From Mobula hypostoma (lineage: Eukaryota): a stretch of DNA of 64,000 bases. Shown here piece by piece: positions 1,350-38,693 of this stretch. Within the stretch, counting starts at the first letter, position 1, and every line of letters begins with the position of its first letter. The stretch covers positions 84,074,001-84,138,000 of the forward strand of contig NC_086097.1 in NCBI RefSeq assembly GCF_963921235.1. Reading direction: 5' to 3'. The notes beneath the pieces were generated by a model, which saw nothing but the letters and a program-made list of their open reading frames with translations, was not told the origin of the DNA and did no database searches. The position numbers and the translations under genes were made by a program.

Positions 1350-4300
1350 CCCAGGGCAATGGTGAAAGGTTTTGATCAGGTCTAGGTCCAGAATGTCATG
1401 GGGGTGGCCGGGGGGTACCCACAGTGTTTCCTGTGGGCTATATTCCTCCCATTTCACCAAGTACTGGAGCAGCCATGAACCAGAAAAGGATCCAGAAGCT
1501 AACAGATGGTGAACACTGGCAAATGATGCAAAGAGCTGTGGGCAAACTCAGGACCTTGCCAGCAGACTGCACAGAAGGAGCTTTGGATGGCAAACATGGA
1601 AGGTGGAGTTGACATTCATGGTATATGTCCACTAAAGATGGTAAATAACTGGGTTGATCTGAACCTTGATAGTCTGATGTAGCATGGCACTGGTTTCTGA
1701 GACTTAAACCACAGAGGGATGTCGTTGATAGATAGATTTTTTTGACCAGGAGGGAACAAATGCCGCAGCAGACTCTGATGGTTGGCTTGCTACTGTTGTT
1801 ACAGAGAGGCCTTCGGCAGGGCTGCCTGAACTTTCCTCCATTTTTGCCAGCAATGGCAAGCTAGCTGTTCAGCAGACAGGACTTCCACCTCGGACTCCTT
1901 CTAGGGAAACAGAAGTGGGGGGGGTGGGGGTAACCAAAACGACTCTCGAAGGGAGACATACCAGTAGAAGAGCAACACAGTGTTATCAGCAAGCTTTGTC
2001 CAGAGCAAGTGATTGCTCCAGGTGGATGGATGACACCTCAGGTTCTTCTCCAGGTCCTGGTTGGACCTCTCTGCCTGCCCAGTGTACTGGGGGGTGAAAT
2101 CCCAATGAGAGACTGACCATAACTTTAATAAGCCAACAGAAGGCCTTTCAGAACTGGAAGACAAACTGAGGGTCTCAGTCAGAAACAGTGTCCTGGGGAA
2201 AGCTGTGTACCCTAAACATGTATTGCAGCATAAGGTTGGCCATCTCCCAAGCTGAGGGAAGCTTGGTATGGGCACAACGTGACAAGCCTCAAAGAACTGG
2301 TCCCTCACCACCATAATCCCAGTGTTACCTTGTGATGTTCGCAGACTGGCAATGAAGTCTGAGGAGGTAAGGGACCAGGGATGGGAAGAAATGGACACTG
2401 GGTGTAGTAGCTCCTGTGGATGTGAACTGGGTTCCTTGTTCCGGTCGTAGATGTGTCAGGCTTCCATATAGGAATTGACATTCCCATACATGCCCAGCCA
2501 CCAGAACTGCATGTACTCTTCCATTTGAGCAGTCCTTAGATACCCTGTGATATGTGATGTGTGCTCTCATTGTTACACATCTAATTGGACAGATTTAGGG
2601 ACAAAAAGACGACAGACAACATGGTGTGCTGCCAACTGGGTCTGCCTTGTGCTGTTGTGCTCTCCTGATGATGACCTCAACCTCCCATTGGAACTGTGCC
2701 ACCAGCCTGGACCTTGGGAGGATGGGACAACGACTAGGTCTTTTGGTTCAATCTGCCTGGAGAGGGCATCCAGCTTCTGATTCTATGAGCCTGAGATTCG
2801 CTGAGATTCGCTGAGATTCTCTGAGGTAATGATAAGATCAAAATGGTTATTAAAAAAATGAGACCCGCAGCCTGGTGTGAATTTAACCACTTTTCCTCTG
2901 GAGTATAGGCCAGGTTGTTGTGGTTTGTCCAGACAACAAATGAATGTTTGGCCACCTCCAGCCAATGTCTCCACTCCTCCATGGCTAATCTGATTGTCAT
3001 CAGCTCTCTATTTCCTGTGCCATAACTCCTCTCCGCAGGGGAGAACTATTGGGAGGAGAAAGCACAGGGTTGGAGTTTCTGGTTAGATGGGGAGGGGGGG
3101 ATGTGAATGAACAGCCCCAACCCTAGCATCAGAGGTGTCTACCTCAGCAGTGAATGGCAGCTCAGGGTCAGGGACAGCAAGCACAGAAGTCTTTGTGAAG
3201 TGACACTTCAATTCTCGAAAAGTCACCTCAGCTTCTGGGGTCCAGCAAAATGGGCCAGCAGTCAGGCAGAGTGGTAAGAGGTACTGTGATAGAATTGAAG
3301 TTGTGGATGAACCTCTGGTAAAAAATCTGCGGACCCCGGAAATTGCTGGAGCTCTTGATCATTGTGGGTTGTGCTCAATCCCTGATGGCTTGGGTCTTGT
3401 TAGAGTCCATCTGCAAGTCCCCATTTGGTGGAATTACAAATATCTATCACCAAATATAGACTGGAGTTCTTTGATGAAATAACAGGCAGTGGATATTGTT
3501 TACTTGGATTTTCAGAAGGCTTTTGGCATGGTGCCATACATGAGGTCCTTAACAAGGTAAGAGCCCATGGTATTACAGGAAAGATACTAGCATAGATAGA
3601 AGATTGGCTCTCTGGCAGGAGGCAAAGAATGGGTAAAAGGGCCCTTTCTAGTTGGCGGCAGGTCACTAGTGGTGTTTCGCAGGGGTCGATATTGGGACCA
3701 CTTCTTTCCATGTTTTATGTCAATGACGATGATGATGATGGAATTGATGGCTTTGTGGCCAAGTTGACAGACAAGACAAAAATAGGTGGAGGGGCAGATA
3801 GTGTTGAGGAAGCAGAAAGTCTACAGAGGGACTTGGACAGATTGAGAGAATAGGTAAAGAAGTGGCAGATGGAATATAGTGTAAGGAAGTGTATGGCCAT
3901 GCACTTTGGTAGAAGGAATAAAGGCATAGACTATTTTCTAAACAGGGAGAAAAATCAAAAATCAGAGGTGCAAAGGGTCTTGAGAGTCCATACAAGATTT
4001 CCTAAAGGTTAACTTGCAGGTTGGGTTGGTCGTAAGGAAGGCAAATTCATTTCAAGAGGACTAGAATATAGGAGCAAGGATGTGGTCCTGATGCTTTGTA
4101 AGGCATTGGTTAGACTGCACTTGGAATATTGTGAGCATGTTTGGTCCCTTATCTAAAAGATGTGCTGCCATTAGAGAGGATCCAGGAGAGGTTTCCGAGA
4201 ATGGAAGGGTTAACGCATGAGGAGTGTTTGATGGCTCTGGGCCCATAGTCATGGAATTTGACTGAAACCTACCAAATATTGAAAGGCCAAGATAGAGTGG

Positions 4301-12231: not shown

Positions 12232-15200
12232 TTAACATCTAGATAAACAATCAGCGATCACGTTATATTTACCCTTAATATGAGTGATCAAAATATTGTA
12301 CTCCTGTAATATTAGACTCCAATTTAATAACCTTCTATTTTTTTTTTCATCTTACTCAAAAACACTAACGGATTGTGATCGGTATAAACTGTGAGTGGTT
12401 TATGAGTAGTACCAACATACACTTCAAAATGTTGTAAAGCCAAAACAAGAGATAACAACTCTTTCTCTATTGTTGAATAATTTCTTTGACGGGCATTAAA
12501 TTTCTTAGAAAGATAAGCCACCAGACAATCAACTTCATCACCATCATCTCTTTGAAGTAACACTGCTCCTGCAGCTTCATCACTAGTATCTACAGCTAAC
12601 AAAAATATTTTTTCAAAGTCAGGAGATTTAAGTACAGGTTGACTACATATTATAGTTTTCAATTTATCAAATGCCTCCTGACAAGACTCTGTCCAAACAA
12701 ACTTTTCATTTTTCTTCAAGAGATTAGTCAATGGAAGAGCAATGTTGGCAAAATCTTTACAGAATTTTCTGTAATATCCTACCATACCCAAGAATCTTCT
12801 GAGAGTTTTTCTACAAGTTGGAGTGGGTACTTCTAAAATTGCCTGAACTTTTGCTTGAACAGGTGCTAATTTCCCCTGACCCACAACATAACCAAGGTAA
12901 GTAACTGTGGCATGATCAAATTCACTTTTAGCTAAGTTAATAGTTAAGTTAGCTTTTGAAAGTCTCTCAAATAGTTTCTTCCCTGCAGTAATATGTGCTT
13001 TCCACGTATTATTTCCTGTAACTAAATCATCAATATATGCATCTGTATCTTTTAATTCCTGAATCACACTATTAATCATCCTCTGAAAAATACCTGGTGC
13101 ATTCTTCATCCCAAATGGAAGAACATTATATTCATATAACCCAGAGGGGTTACAAATGCAGAAATCTCTCTACCTCTATCCGTCAATGGAACACACCAAT
13201 AACCTTTTAACAAATCAATTTTTGTAAGGAATTTGGCCTGTCCAACTTTATTCACACAATCATCTACCCTAGGGATTGGATATGCATCAGTTTTTGTCAC
13301 AGCATTCACCTTTCTGTAATCTGTACAAAACCTAATATTATTGTCTGGCTTTGGCACCATAACGCACGGTGAAATCCAATTCGAATTAGAAGGTCTAATA
13401 ATATTATTCTCTAACATATACTTAATTTCTCATACAGCAAGTTCACATTTTTCCCTGTTCATTCGATACGGATTTTGTTTTAAGGGTTTTGCATCTCCAA
13501 CATCTACATCATGCGTAGCTACGGTGGTTCTTCTAGGGAAGTGTGGAAATAAATCTCTATATTTAAAAATTAACTGTTTCATCTGCTCTCTCTGCTCTGG
13601 CTGTAAGTGAACTAATTTTTCATCAATATTTTCTAGAATTTTTGAATTTGGTAACCTGGCTGAAATAATTTTGGGTTTAAAATGAGTTTCAGATGAATCC
13701 TCCATTAAGTTTTTATCAAGATCAGACTCATTATTGATCACAACAGTCATAGTGGCAATCTCTCTCTCATAATACCGTTTTATCATATTTATATGACACA
13801 GCTGTGTTGTCTTTCTCCGATCTGGCGTTTTTACCACATAATCCACATCATTTACCTTAGATTTAATCTCATAAGGTCCATGAAATTTGGCTTGTAATGG
13901 GTTCGTTTGCACTGGGAAAAGAACCAACACCTTATCTCCAGGCTTAAATGACCTCATCCTAGCTTCCCTATCATACCAAGCCTTCATCTTCTCTTGAGCT
14001 AACTTTAAATTTTCCTTGGCCAAGCTACAAGCTTTATACAACCTTCTTTTAAATTTTAAAACATAATCTAGCAAATTAGTATGTACTTCTTTATTAATCC
14101 ACTGTTCCTTCAACAAGGCCAAAGGTCCTCGAAATCTATGTCCAAACACAAGTTCAAAAGGACTAAAATCTAATGATTCCTGTACTGCCTCCCTTACTGC
14201 AAAAAGTAGTAAAGTATACCTGCATCCCAGTCCTTTTCATTTTCCACACAGTATGTCCTAATCATAGTTTTTAGTGTAGAATGAAATCTCTCCAAGGCTC
14301 CTTGTAATTCTGGATGATAGGCTGAGGAAATAATCTGTTTTGCTCCCAGTTTATAAACTATCTGCTGAAACAACCCAGACATAAAGTTACTACCTTGATC
14401 TGATTGTATTTCTTTAGGCAACCCAAAATAAGTAAAGAATTTTATAAGAGCCTTTGTCACAGTTTTGGCTGTTATATTCCTAAGAGGTACTGCCTCTGGA
14501 AACCTAGATGCTGTGCACATAATAGTTAATAAATATTGATGTCCAGTTTTAGTTTTTGGCAAAGGACCTACACAGTCTACAATGATTTTTGAGAACGGCT
14601 CACCCAATACTGGGATTGGTTGCAGTGGGGCCACTGGAGTAACCTGTTTAGGTTTACCCACAATTTGACACGTATGTCATGTTCTACAAAATGTCACCAC
14701 ATCTTGTCTTAAACTAGGCCAATAAAAATGTTTAGAAACTTTGTTCATAGTTTTCTTTACACCTAAATGACTACCCAAAGGAATACTATGAACCAGATTT
14801 AAAATCTCATTTCAGTAAATTTTAGGAACTACTACCTGATGATTAACTTCCCATTCCTCACTAGCAGGAATTGTAGGCAATCTCCACTTTCTCATTAATA
14901 CCCCCTTTTCAAAATAATATCTGACTGGCACTTTTTCAATTTCACTATCTGGAAGAGCTTGTTCTTTTAATTTAACTATCTCAGGATCTCTACCCTGCTC
15001 TGCTATCATCTCCTTCCGAGAAAAAGACAAATCTTCCTGGTCAGACTTAACACCAAAATCCTGATCAAATAATATAGGTAAGAAAGTTTCTGATACATCC
15101 TCAAAATTCGAATCTTGATTTGAACTGTCATGGGTAACAACCTCATCCTTTACATCACTCTTTTTAGCCATAGCTCTTGTTACAACACAGGAAGAATCTG

Positions 15201-16762
15201 TGTTAGAATCCCTCTGTGGTTCCTCAGAATTTGAATTTATTGTCAAATTGCACTTCAGGAAAAACTTGTCCACCTGCTAAATCATTCCCTAGCAAAAGAG
15301 AAACATCATTCATAGGTAAACTGGATTGTAATCCTACTTTAACAACCCCTGTAACTAATCCTGACCTTAAATTTACTCTATGTAAATGTACTGGCATAAG
15401 GGCACTTCCAACTCCTCTTATATAATTTACCTCATGAGTGTCAGACTCATCACTAAACTTTAGCACCCTGTCTAATATTAGTGATTGAGAAGCTCCGGTA
15501 TCTCTAAGTATCCTTATTGGTACTGAATTGGATCCTTCTTTCAAGGATACAAATCCTTTTGTTATATAAGTTTCATATCCTTTCTTAACTCGGTCAGACT
15601 CTAACACATCTTCATTAATATTTTCTGAACCCTGTGGCTTTACAAGTTTTTCAATATGCTGCACACAAGCATCTGGGTCTACTTCTTTCTCTTTCCTTTT
15701 CAATCGAAAGCAATTAGCTACTACATGTCCAGGTTTTTTACAATAATTACAAACAATACCAGAATGTCTTTCCTTCACATGTCTCCCTTCATCCTTACTT
15801 ATCTCACTAACTTCAGATTTAATGTCTGATTTACCTTGACTCTCTGTGCTAGTTTTCCTTTTAAAAATTTTACCTGGAGAAAATTTATTCTTGTGAATTA
15901 AAACATACTCATCAGCTAGTTTAGCAATTTCCTGCAATGTAGCAGTGTCCCGTTTATTTAAGTATGTTCTCACTTCAACAGGAATGCTTCTTTTAAATTC
16001 CTCCTGCAAAATCAACTCTTTTAATTTATTGTTCTCCCCATTCACATTTTTAGAGGAAACCCATCTCTCAAAACACACAAATTTCTTACAGGCAAATTCC
16101 ACATAAGTTTTTTCCACCGATTTCTTCAAACTTCTGAATCTTTCTCTATACGCTTCAGGAACCATCTCATATGCCTTTAATATACGTTGCTTAACAATAT
16201 CATAATCCAGTGCTTGCTCAGCATCTAAAGCTGTATAAACTTGTTGTACCTTGCCTTTAATTACACTTTGTGACATCACTGGCCATAGCTCTTTCGGCCA
16301 CTTTAAACTCAGAGCAACAGTTTCAAAATGTTTGGAAATATTTGTCCACTTCAGCTTCATTAAATGGAGGAGCCAAAATAACCTCACGACTAGCAATAAA
16401 CTGTTTCATAGAACCAGAAGACTGATTCCCGGACTTCAATTTCTGCATCTCTAGCTCAAATTTCCTCTGGTTTTCAGTTTCTTTCCGACTCTTTTCCAAA
16501 TAAGCTTCTAATTACTTTAACTGTATTTGTTCAAGATGTAACTGCATTTCCAGCTTACTCATTGGAACTTATCTAACACCTCCTCATCAAACAATTTCAA
16601 AGTAATATAATGCTCAGTGATTTTTCTTTGTATGAAAGCCTTGGTGGAATTCTTCTTAATTCCTTTAATATCCAACTTCCTAGCAATCTCCAATACCTCA
16701 GGTTTTCTCACATTCACTAAAGACCCTAAGTCAGGTGTGTCCATAAACCCGTCAATATCCAT
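12232..16762 (-). pseudogene. Gmr1 gag-pol: SCAN-like capsid, CCHC knuckle, protease, integrase, RT, RNase H (several frameshifts and stops)
   Basis: CNYCKKPGHVVANC, LRDTGAS, IVDCVGPL..SDQGSNF..YHPELQGALER (INT, 14194-14661), FCTDYRKVN..KIDLLKGY and YIDD (RT), AVDTS..NYSTIEKE (RH). Ends VIADCLSRC* at 12232. Confidence 0.93.
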
Positions 16763-19459: not shown

Positions 19460-20345
19460 GAAGCTTTTCCAGCATATGTTTTTGGAGACATAACAACGTT
19501 CTCAAAGTTGTAACAGAAGCGGTTGAGCAGAGAGTACTGCAGCACAACTTATCTCATGCCCCATGCTGCACAGAACATCGCATATCATTTGTGAAAGAAG
19601 GCTCCAAGTCAAGGGTGTACAGCATAGGCTCACGATCAAGCATACTTTCTTCAGCCAATGATTGGTGTGTCAAGGCTGACTTGGACGGGAAAGGCAGTTT
19701 CCCGGAGCAAATAGCTTTTACAACATTGCGTCCAGATATAATCGTATGGTCTGACACCAGTCGAGAAGCGGTTATTGGTGAACTCACAGTCCGCTGGGAA
19801 GACAACATCGATGAAGCCCATGAGCGCAAGTTAACCAAGTATGCAGAATTAAGATCAGAGTGCAGAGACAGAGGGTGGAAGGTCTCATGCTATCCATTCG
19901 AAGTAGGCTGCCGTGGGTTTATTGCGTTCACTCTCCAGAAGTGGCTGCGTGACTTTGGCTTCACTAGAAGTGAGATCAAGTCAACCAGCAGGGCTGTAGC
20001 TGAGGCAGCAGAGAAAGGATCAGCATGGGTGTGGACCAAGTATATCCAGAGGGGCAGATAGTCAGACAGTGTATACATATCTTGCAAACCCTTCAGTAGT
20101 TGCATAGACACCTGAAGAGTAGACTATCTGTTGGATGGAAGTGATCAACAACTCTGATAGAGGCAGATGCCAAGTTTTTAAGCTCACCAGTGGGAGGTTG
20201 TGCTTTAGCACTGCTGGCCCACCACCTCGAGGGAGTCTTGATCATAAGCGGGCCAAAACTCCTGAAGACAGGTGGCAAATCAATTGATAATCCCACTGGT
20301 GATAGCACAGAACAGTTAACATCTTAGTCCACGTGTATTTTGTAA
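19460..20345 (+). mobile_element. Hero-type RLE non-LTR retrotransposon, 5'-truncated (family A)
   Basis: WRHNNVL, LRPDIIVWS..IGELTVRWE..RKLTKYAEL..PFEVGCRGF is a restriction-like endonuclease domain. Stop at 20061, then a ~280-nt 3' UTR. Confidence 0.85.
20184..20302 (+). ncRNA. Candidate structured RNA (permuted hammerhead-like core + kink-turn) in Hero family A 3' UTR
   Basis: 12-bp closing stem and five further helices that map one-to-one onto 38378-38495 with compensatory changes. See findings. Confidence 0.65.
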
Positions 20346-20859
20346 CTCTATGTTGCATTACCCTGGCATTTATATTATGATAATGAAAAATAGCAGTTAC
20401 CCAGAAGATGATGGGATATTCCGATGAAATGAATGATATGACAAGACAGCCTGAACTTGTTAGAATGCAGCATTATATGTAGTTTATTGGTGTACTTCTG
20501 AAAGACCTGGTAGTACTAGATATAAAGAAAGAAAGATATTCTTTTCACCAATATAATTAGTTTCAACAGGCACAGTAAAATCACTGCCTTCAAACAATTT
20601 AGAATTAGCTTTCTAGATGTTAGTTCAGAACTGCACACAAATTTTCCCAATAATTATTTTACCATGTTACTCACCACAACAATGTTTTCTTTCATTGTTA
20701 AAATTGATAATAATCTGTATGTTTTTACTCCTTTCTGTTAGCATTATTGAGTGGGTTGGAAGTTTAACCATTTGAAAACTTGAGTCCCTCATGTAGACTG
20801 GGATAAGCTTCAAATTGCTGAGGCACTACACCTTCGTACAGCAAGTTTGGGTGTGAAGA

Positions 20860-37603: not shown

Positions 37604-38515
37604 ATGATCTTTGGAAAGCTGAACCACACCGCATCCAATTTCTCATCCAGGCAGTGTACGATGTGCTTCCAAGCCCATCAAACCTGCACACATGGGGCAA
37701 GGCAGAGTCACCTGCGTGCCCACTGTGCTCCAAGTGAGGAACCCTGGAGCACATCCTCAGCGGCTGCGCAAGGGCACTTGGTGAGGGACAGTACAGGTGG
37801 AGGCATGATCAGGTCCTGAAGACCATTGCTGAAGCCGTCAGCACAGGAGTTGAGTGGGTGAAGTGGTCCCGACCCTCCAAGCAGACCATTGCCTTTGTCA
37901 GAGCTGGGGAGCAGCCAATACCTGCCAAAAGAACATCTGCAGGCATCCTGACCTCTGCAAGGGACTGGCAGCTGTTGGTGGACCTCGAACGGCAGCTGAA
38001 GTTCCCCAACCATATCGCAGCCACCACCCTGCGACCAGACATTGTCCTACTGTCTGAGTCTACTAAGCAAGTGGTGCTGCTGGAGCTGACAGTCCCATGG
38101 GAAGATAGCTTGGAACAGGCCTTTGAAAGGAAGCTCTCCAAGTATGCAGGACTGGTCAGCAACTGTCAGCAGGCTGGATGGAGAGCGAGGTGTCTGCCAG
38201 TGGAGGTTGGCTGTAGGGGATTCATAGCCTGTTCTTTAGTTAGGGCCTTCAGCATTTTGGGTATCGAGGGAGAGAGGAAGAGGAGAGCCATCCGCAGTAC
38301 CGCCGACGCGGCAGAGAGGACCTCAAGATGGCTGTGGCTCAGAAGAAGGGAGCCATGGAGTCATACGTAGCTAGCCATCTGGACACAAGCTGGGGTCTGA
38401 TCAGCCCCGGCTGGGTCACCTGGAGGAGGTTGTATGATGTTGAAAGACCCGAAACACCCGATGATTCCAGGAACATCACTGAAGATGTGTCCAGAAGCAT
38501 CAGTAGATGTATATA
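37604..38515 (+). mobile_element. Hero-type RLE non-LTR retrotransposon, 5'-truncated (family B), in slc10a1 intron 3
   Basis: AVYDVLPSPSNLHTWG, CPLC..LEHILSGC zinc knuckle, YRWRHDQVL, LRPDIVL..LELTVPWE..KLSKY..PVEVGCRGF. Stop at 38370. Confidence 0.9.
38378..38495 (+). ncRNA. Candidate structured RNA (permuted hammerhead-like core + kink-turn) in Hero family B 3' UTR
   Basis: 10-bp closing stem, five further helices, and CUGAAGA / GAAA / GUA placed as in a hammerhead core. See findings. Confidence 0.7.
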
Positions 38516-38693
38516 CACAACAGTAAGAATGTAGTAATACCCTTAATACGTACTTTTACTCTAATTCCTACCACACTTATCTGCGTGCAAAATCAAGTTT
38601 ACTCTTTGATTGTAGAATCATAAAGAGAGGTACTGAAGACAAGTATTTTGATTGTTATGACAGAACTACTTGTACTCCAATAAATCACGTTAC

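Follow-up and report, generated by a model that had tools for sequence, protein, structure and literature searches.

A Conserved Pseudoknotted RNA Fold with a Predicted Hammerhead-Type Core in the 3' UTR of Probable Hero-Type Retrotransposons

Here we describe an RNA fold at positions 38378–38495 of a 64,000-nucleotide (nt) stretch of the Mobula hypostoma genome (NCBI RefSeq assembly GCF_963921235.1, contig NC_086097.1, positions 84,074,001 to 84,138,000, forward strand). This stretch is called the window throughout, and positions are counted from its first letter. The fold lies in the 3' untranslated region (UTR) of a retrotransposon without long terminal repeats (non-LTR retrotransposon, LINE) that is likely of the Hero type. 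An original prediction, made from the letters of the window alone, had proposed a permuted, pseudoknotted hammerhead core with a kink-turn at this place. We find that the fold is almost certainly real and conserved, judging by covariation in sequence alignments, and that its core is very probably of the hammerhead type. In our overall reading, to which we give a probability of about 0.6, the RNA would be a conserved 3'-UTR module of Hero-type elements that combines a reversible hammerhead variant with a cis element for the reverse transcriptase (RT) of the element.

Results

The fold is conserved and covaries among relatives of the element

Metagenome contigs were scanned with six aligned C-terminal domains of the open reading frame (ORF), which confirmed 231 relatives; 80 loci at 41–85% identity were kept. 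A covariance model (the second of the two used here) placed the fold in 55 of the 80 loci, always on the strand of the ORF and after it. A strict hammerhead descriptor, consisting of CUGANGA, GAAA, a U followed by any letter but G, and no fewer than 4 pairs in each of stems I, II and III, matched 44 of the 80 loci on the ORF strand and none on the opposite strand; in twenty shuffles of the window (2.56 Mb) it matched once. Seven loci missed by the model were added by the descriptor, so that the union comprises 62 of the 80, and about eight of the loci without a match have fewer than 80 nt past the ORF.

Covariation was examined in an alignment of the 55 metagenome rows found by the model, with both pseudoknots written in. 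In this alignment 90.0% of the cells are paired, compared with 34.5–42.7% when the strands are slid against each other, and all 43 pairs, including those of both pseudoknot helices, change on both sides. The covariation score was 0.672 versus 0.06–0.11, and none of 500 shuffles attained the observed values. The nested minimum-free-energy fold alone is modestly unusual (z of −2.5 and −3.4).

All six helices that had been proposed (P1, a hairpin and helices a to d) are present in the window sequence where the original prediction had placed them, and the same is true of the GU-A, GAAA, CUGAAGA and GA/GAUGA segments. The parts of the fold are as follows, with counts from the 55-row alignment or from the 50 rows used for the core (see below), and with residues in hammerhead numbering.

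38378–38387, plus strand: 5' strand of P1, pairing with 38486–38495; 10 bp, perfect; 10 of 10 pairs covary, 93% of cells paired
38388–38412, plus strand: hairpin, 38388–38395 with 38405–38412; 8 bp, one of them U-G; 9-nt loop; 8 of 8 pairs covary, 94% of cells paired
38413–38417, plus strand: 5' strand of helix a, assigned as stem II (10.1–10.5), forming a pseudoknot with 38446–38450; 5 bp; 5 of 5 pairs covary, 91% of cells paired
38419–38425, plus strand: 5' strand of helix b, the non-canonical arm of the kink-turn, pairing with 38465–38471; 7 bp, the last G-U; 7 of 7 pairs covary, 88% of cells paired
38426–38427, plus strand: GA, short strand of the kink-turn, facing GAUGA at 38460–38464
38428–38433, plus strand: 5' strand of helix c, assigned as stem III (16.6–16.1), ending in G16.2 and U16.1; 6 of 6 pairs covary, 96% of cells paired
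38434, plus strand: H17 (A); by the hammerhead rule, its bond to 38435 is the predicted scissile one
38435–38441, plus strand: 5' strand of helix d, assigned as stem I (1.1–1.7), forming a pseudoknot with 38472–38478; 7 bp; 7 of 7 pairs covary, 73.5% of cells paired
38442–38445, plus strand: GAAA linker joining the far ends of stems I and II; 0–8 nt and A-rich across families
38446–38450, plus strand: 3' strand of helix a (11.5–11.1), pairing with 38413–38417
38451–38453, plus strand: G12, A13 and A14 of the hammerhead core; GAA in 43 and AAA in 7 of 50 rows
38454–38459, plus strand: 3' strand of helix c (15.1–15.6), pairing with 38428–38433
38460–38464, plus strand: GAUGA, the 3-nt bulge and GA of the long strand of the kink-turn, facing 38426–38427
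38465–38471, plus strand: 3' strand of helix b, pairing with 38419–38425
38472–38478, plus strand: 3' strand of helix d (2.7–2.1), pairing with 38435–38441
38479–38485, plus strand: CUGAAGA, that is, C3, U4, G5, A6, N7, G8 and A9 of the hammerhead core
38486–38495, plus strand: 3' strand of P1, beginning directly after A9

The hairpin abuts both P1 and helix a with no linker. Between the 5' strands of helices a and b stands a single nucleotide, A38418, which is a purine in 50 of the 54 rows that have a letter there. Helix d has the lowest fraction of paired cells because of alignment gaps, as the covariance model does not align this helix; when parsed outward from the core, stem I has 5–7 consecutive pairs, of many different sequences, in 40 of 50 rows. 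In the window copy helix c contains one mismatch, U38430 opposite C38457. A T-to-G variant at 38430, which repairs this mismatch, accounts for about 30–38% of contig depth in sequencing runs X2, X19 and X20 and for about 5% in run X1, whereas 27 of 30 copies compared in the Mobula genome retain the mismatch.

At least seven families of the Mobula genome carry the fold

A 23-nt motif of the fold (38442–38464) was found at 3832 places of the Mobula genome with up to 2 mismatches, compared with none for the control. The first covariance model was built from 13 near-identical copies of the window family and contained the nested helices only. Searched against the window, it returned a second element at 20186–20300 (42.9 bits, E of 3e-9), with the next best hit at an E of 0.79. 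The original prediction had described the same map in a second, divergent family at this place, which is thus recovered by a model of the first family only.

20184–20302, plus strand: fold of the second, divergent Hero-like element; the ORF ends at 20061 and the element near 20348

The core of this second window copy reads UUGAUAA and AAA instead of CUGAUGA and GAA. Most of its 29 sister copies have CUGAUGA together with GAA, and 20 of the 29 pass the strict hammerhead descriptor, so the odd letters belong to the second window copy only, which is a decayed one.

Loci of other families were located through the protein motif EVGCRGF, using a degenerate pattern from which the wobble letters of both window families were excluded; it gave 284 places in the genome versus 4 for the control. 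Among 30 other Hero-like loci that were fetched, 29 have the fold just downstream of the ORF according to the first model (25–121 bits), and one, L036, has no match to that model. In an alignment of 31 genome rows, many of them decayed, 84% of the cells are paired compared with 30–43% in slid controls, both sides change in 33 of the 43 pairs, and the observed values were not attained in any of 500 shuffles. Altogether the fold covers at least seven families of the Mobula genome. In one copy (L017) the part from the 3' strand of helix b to that of P1 is gone between two short CCAG repeats, which looks like a deletion via slippage or microhomology.

The core letters follow the hammerhead pattern

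Core letters were analyzed in 50 of the 55 metagenome rows, the other five having a gap at the anchor, and in the 31 rows of the Mobula genome. CUGANGA is present in 49 of the 50 metagenome rows, and the lone exception reads CUGAUUA. Within this segment N7 takes all four bases (U 31, C 9, A 5, G 4). The A15.1-U16.1 pair is found in 46 of 50 rows, and C15.2-G16.2 is kept. H17 is C in 18, A in 16, U in 16 and G in none of the metagenome rows, and C in 25, A in 5, U in 1 and G in none of the genome rows, which amounts to G in 0 of 81 overall. The metagenome rows form 22 clusters at 75% identity, and CUGANGA and GAA are kept in 22 of 22. Among the 31 genome rows, 22 have an exact CUGANGA and 21 have GAA. 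C11.1 and G12 together form a CpG, and changes of G12 to A and of C11.1 to U in dead copies may therefore reflect decay by methylation.

By its letters, the combination of positions fixed where catalysis and folding of the core require them, a free N7 and an H17 that is anything but G is the known signature of a hammerhead. A chance likeness in an otherwise ordinary retrotransposon 3' UTR would have to place eleven fixed letters, and the H17 rule in addition, on the correct strands where three covarying helices meet, in 49 of the 50 rows and in every one of the 22 clusters, and would also have to yield the 44 descriptor matches on the ORF strand against 0 on the other, with 1 per 2.56 Mb of shuffled sequence. 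We regard this explanation as extremely improbable.

As the original prediction had expected, the fold escapes standard hammerhead descriptors: there was no Rfam 15 match at the motif. The Rfam hammerhead families gave no hit at the gathering threshold in the window, none at E ≤ 10 in 38300–38600 and none at E ≤ 0.1 in 20 diverse loci. This is to be expected because those models assume the standard wiring. An Rfam match to isrG at positions 1–123 of locus L140 was discarded, being weak, far below threshold and away from the motif.

Canonical order around the junction, reversed order along the strand

The original prediction had stated that the core strands follow each other in the reverse of the order in known hammerheads and that stem II is replaced by a junction of P1, the hairpin and helix a. 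The linear order is indeed reversed (a5', c5'-H17-d5', a3'-GAA-c3', d3'-CUGANGA), but the order around the junction is canonical, running from stem III over H17 to stem I, over CUGANGA to stem II, and over GAA back to stem III. Nor is stem II replaced: helix a is stem II and keeps the pair G10.1-C11.1, which among 46 scored cells is G-C 35 times and G-U 6 times (pair 53/103 of the metagenome alignment). The proposal that helices c and d behave as stems III and I fits the conservation of core letters as well as the covariation.

At the core junction, helix c leads via U-A into d, the 3' strand of d via CUGAAGA into P1, and the 3' strand of a via GAA into that of c. The insertion of P1 and the hairpin between A9 and G10.1, with no linkers, makes stem II one arm of a four-way junction. 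Stem III passes the kink-turn into helix b, the strands of which lead straight into the 5' strand of a, over one purine, and into the 3' strand of d. Helix b thus folds back to the far ends of stems I and II and forms a second, three-way junction with them, the linkers of which are 1 nt and 0–3 nt. The overall architecture is one of two junctions joined by three rods, in which none of stems I to III ends in a loop, and it is this lack of closing loops that makes the core strands follow one another in the opposite linear order to types I–III.

Most copies have a stem II of 5 bp, and stem I is 5–7 bp long; the anchored parse gives stems of 4–7 bp. At a stem II of 5 bp and a stem I of 5–7 bp, natural hammerheads form their loop-loop contact. 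Hammerheads are described as a conserved core ringed by three helices, with types I–III being circular permutations that have one open helix and two looped ones (PMC6155905). According to the same source, stems II and III stack collinearly in solved hammerheads, and activity at low magnesium depends on helix I contacting helix II.

A kink-turn signature and a self-complementary hairpin loop

A kink-turn consists of a canonical stem, a 3-nt bulge, tandem G-A and A-G pairs, and a non-canonical stem; it bends sharply, often held in shape by a protein of the L7Ae type. The pattern that the original prediction had pointed out between helices b and c recurs across the alignment, with GA opposite NNNGA in 42 of 55 rows, and both flanking stems covary. 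It would imply a sharp bend at this place, given that the fold could not close unless b and c bend back on each other. The SAM-I riboswitch is comparable in that its kink-turn bends a helix such that the end loop pairs with a flank. No hammerhead containing a kink-turn was returned by a literature search. L146, L154 and L148, which are the most divergent loci, keep the hammerhead core and all helices and have, in place of the GA/GA letters, another asymmetric 2-by-5 loop, along with a short hairpin loop.

The loop of the hairpin contains the palindrome UGAUCA (38398–38403) in 35 of 55 metagenome rows and 20 of 31 genome rows, and UGGCCA, a double change that keeps the self-complementarity, in 6 of 55 and 3 of 31 rows. 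A GACGUC palindrome in some hairpins is part of the stem and was not counted. Such a self-complementary loop hints at a kissing contact between two RNAs.

Kissing of the palindromic loops could be the first step towards a domain-swapped dimer as the active form, in which the loop of the b–kink–c hairpin would pair with the 5' strand of a and the 3' strand of d of a partner to form two cores. Covariation is the same for pairing in cis and in trans, the swap would ease the strain of a closed monomer, and some natural hammerheads, in viroids and in newt, are described as acting as dimers (PMC6155905). Several divergent lineages, by contrast, have short non-palindromic hairpin loops (UUUA in the second window family, AUCU in L146 and L154), and the shuffled control for the palindrome was high, at 21%, because the stems were included in the test segment. 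We therefore consider a dimer rather unlikely, despite the kept 6-mer.

Is the predicted site cut?

In the explanation that we favor, the RNA would be a true hammerhead variant with a predicted cut after A38434. The cut would be reversible or harmless to the template, with P1 and helices a, b and c keeping the products together, and the whole fold would serve as a cis element for the RT of the element near the 3' end of the RNA, where target-primed reverse transcription starts. Because the catalytic letters are so strictly kept, we slightly favor self-cleavage in vitro, and the RNA would cleave reversibly. Resealing is plausible since P1, a, b and c, with 28 pairs, would hold the cut pieces together. 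Tertiary contacts are described as raising the ligation rate of the Schistosoma hammerhead 2000-fold (PMC6155905).

The genomic copies bear on this question. We sampled 70 copies of the abundant family, picked solely by a motif downstream of the predicted site. All 70 are contiguous across 38434/38435, in line with the earlier statement that genomic copies retain sequence on both sides of the site. None begins at 38435, by which the idea that cut RNA is copied was rejected. From the contiguity and the lack of such starts it follows that the RNA that gets copied is uncut.

Several points weigh against the favored explanation. One is the absence of any start at 38435 among the 70 copies, and contigs of two sequencing runs likewise span the predicted site. 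The most abundant family has a U-C mismatch in stem III, with only 1 of 30 copies passing the strict descriptor. In L146 and L154 a different 2-by-5 internal loop replaces the GA/GA of the kink-turn. Rough geometry suggests that collinear stacking of stems II and III may leave helix b, with linkers of 0–3 nt, short of the tops of stems I and II, and that the closed fold and the active conformation may be mutually exclusive. The case for RT binding is drawn from analogy and from the pattern of 5' ends described below.

If the closed monomer is strained, as the same rough geometry suggests it may be, the RNA could instead be an inactive scaffold, a switch via helix b and the kink-turn, or the domain-swapped dimer. 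If the closed wiring locked the core in an inactive state, the RNA could be a compact docking site for the protein of the element that never cuts. The catalytic letters speak against such a scaffold, being kept in 22 of 22 clusters with a free N7 and an H17 that avoids only G, which is the pattern of a working hammerhead, and we know of no conserved hammerhead core without cleavage. In its favor are the 70 contiguous copies with no start at the site, the tight second junction, which by rough geometry looks hard to fit with the collinear stacking of stems II and III described for solved structures (PMC6155905), and the precedent of R2, in which a ribozyme fold is reported as a protein-binding site (PMC6765202). 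We hold a scaffold that never cuts to be possible, though on the unlikely side.

The 5' ends of the 70 copies were also informative. Of these copies, 62 extend upstream beyond 38302 and eight are truncated, with 5' ends at about 38328, 38359, 38367, 38372, 38372, 38377, 38383 and 38414. The 19 nt immediately upstream of P1 contain five of these eight ends, the next 57 nt upstream one, and the first 64 nt of the fold two. Compared with a uniform spread over 140 nt, this clustering has a binomial p of about 0.002, for a total of eight truncated copies. This points to a requirement for the complete fold on any template, or to protection by the fold of the sequence 3' of it. The 62 copies that extend upstream and the cluster just before P1 fit a need for the whole fold in cis.

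The same cluster would be expected if the double pseudoknot mainly blocked 5'-to-3' exonucleases or stalled the RT and so protected a minimal 3' fragment, with the hammerhead letters being secondary. The number of truncated copies is small, an equal pattern is expected if copying needs the whole fold, and the kept letters of the hammerhead core would go unexplained; a role of this kind is thus very unlikely to be the main one.

For the favored explanation, a role of the fold in recognition by the RT is reasonably probable from its position and by analogy with R2. The 3'-UTR pseudoknot of R2Tg is reported to be bound by the R2 protein and to be necessary and sufficient for target-primed reverse transcription (PMC12222951).

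Cleavage of tandem transcripts, which would leave a piece of the 3' UTR at the 5' ends of new copies, was rejected as an explanation. The sole close triplet among the first 100 motif places searched (L022–L024) consists of three 5'-truncated copies. These lie in C1 at 54852521–54860680 (a region that also includes L091 and L092), belong to the same family, have the same orientation and fall within 8 kb. Two of the three share about 1.6 kb at 96.6% identity, and the cluster may be a local duplication.

The element and its place in the window

The fold begins 8 nt past the stop codon of the ORF, and the element ends about 24 nt past P1, as judged from 30 sister copies, so the fold fills nearly the whole 3' UTR. 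In contigs of four sequencing runs likeness was lost at 38519 in each.

37858–38370, plus strand: 3' end of the element ORF, in a 5'-truncated copy; C-terminal restriction-like endonuclease region; stop codon at 38368–38370
38496–38519, plus strand: 3' tail of the element; the flanks of copies diverge after about 38519

The 170-amino acid piece of the ORF had no Pfam match of its own. It has 413 longer homologues at E ≤ 1e-5, which are about 1000–1100 amino acids long, contain RVT_1 and zf-RVT, and come from many teleosts, a ray and lancelets, with entries from Tetraodon and Takifugu among them. The aligned C-terminal motifs, RPD..ELTVPWE..K.KY..EVGCRGF, include one of the PD..E.T type, and we read them as being of the restriction-like endonuclease kind. 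Flanking DNA differs from copy to copy in the 30 copies compared. Hero elements, a clade of the R2 group, are described as having an RT and a C-terminal restriction-like endonuclease, as lacking target specificity, and as occurring in fish, lancelet and sea urchin (PMC3636483, PMC9004415). From the homologues, the domain motifs and the differing flanks, Hero is the likely label for the element.

The Mobula endonuclease region shares 83–88% identity with its counterparts in a conger eel, a flatfish, a pipefish and a ray (P0003–P0007). This is high for such distant hosts and suggests horizontal spread or very strong constraint. In entries from Tetraodon, lancelet and Takifugu (P0060, P0115 and P0093) the annotated ORF continues into the RNA fold, so coding sequence and fold overlap in some lineages. 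The tails of these ORFs (..WTQAGN or ..WTQVGD) correspond to P1 and the stem of the hairpin, and in Takifugu the tail extends to a stop codon that would coincide with the start of stem I, taking up its first three bases.

Elsewhere in the window, two long open frames on the minus strand at 14812–16405 encode a zinc knuckle of the CCHC type and a DTGAS motif resembling that of aspartic proteases. They probably belong to a gag-pol fragment of an LTR retroelement and are unrelated to the RNA fold.

Discussion

With hammerheads of types I–III the Hero fold shares the three helices, CUGANGA, GAA, the A15.1-U16.1 pair, an H17 that is not G, and the order of strands around the junction. Its stems I and II have the usual length and are tied at their far ends, as in hammerheads generally. 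Unlike types I–III, it has no loop-closed stem, its linear core order is reversed, two extra helices stand between A9 and G10.1, stem III contains a kink-turn, and Rfam has no match for it. The mammalian Clec2 3'-UTR hammerhead, which is discontinuous, also has an unusual connectivity, with a normal strand order and a long insertion.

Hammerhead motifs in non-coding ends of retroelements are described for Penelope-like elements, retrozymes and SINE-like repeats of Schistosoma (PMC6765202). These are ordinary or minimal hammerheads of type I or III, located in terminal repeats or tandem units, and are thought to free unit-length RNA from multimers. The Hero fold differs from them in being present as a single copy inside the 3' UTR of a LINE, in its wiring, and in that both flanks of the predicted site are kept in all sampled copies. 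It resembles the R2 3'-UTR element as a structured, pseudoknotted RNA close to the 3' terminus of a LINE that encodes a restriction-like endonuclease, but has no sequence or model likeness to it (the Rfam R2 families were unmatched), and no hammerhead core has been reported for R2. The double-pseudoknotted HDV-like ribozymes in the 5' UTRs of LINEs are a further comparison. These are described as self-cleaving and protein-binding, and the R2 protein as binding the pseudoknot in the 5' HDV-like ribozyme of its own element whether or not cleavage occurs (PMC6765202). They belong to another ribozyme class and to the other end of the element, and free the 5' end from a co-transcript, whereas a cut in the Hero RNA would fall inside the element.

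Concerning novelty, no description of the Hero fold was found in a full-text literature search, which did not extend to Repbase and Dfam notes or to supplements. In the section on retrotransposon ribozymes of a 2019 review, HDV-like ribozymes are listed in R2, L1Tc, RTE and Baggins and hammerheads in Schistosoma repeats, Penelope-like elements and retrozymes, and Hero is absent (PMC6765202). The hammerhead itself is known; what appears to be new, going by the letters and their pairing, is the wiring of its core in a linear strand order for which we found no earlier description. A more far-reaching proposal would be that the closed, pseudoknotted and kink-turn-braced RNA is an active, fourth natural wiring of the hammerhead, and that cutting and resealing (or a domain-swapped dimer) is required in the Hero life cycle from lancelets to fish. 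We put this forward tentatively and think it doubtful in this full form.

The hammerhead has been studied more than any other small ribozyme, and its natural forms are taught as three circular permutations. A widespread, strongly conserved fourth wiring would mean that descriptor and covariance searches have been blind to part of its range, and, if true, it invites a search for pseudoknotted versions of other known ribozymes. With stems I and II covalently tied and the products tethered, the long-discussed balance between cleavage and ligation would become directly testable in a natural RNA. For the elements themselves, the fold marks out the 3'-UTR module for an entire clade of LINEs that bear an endonuclease; in the related R2 elements, template choice hinges on the 3'-UTR RNA.

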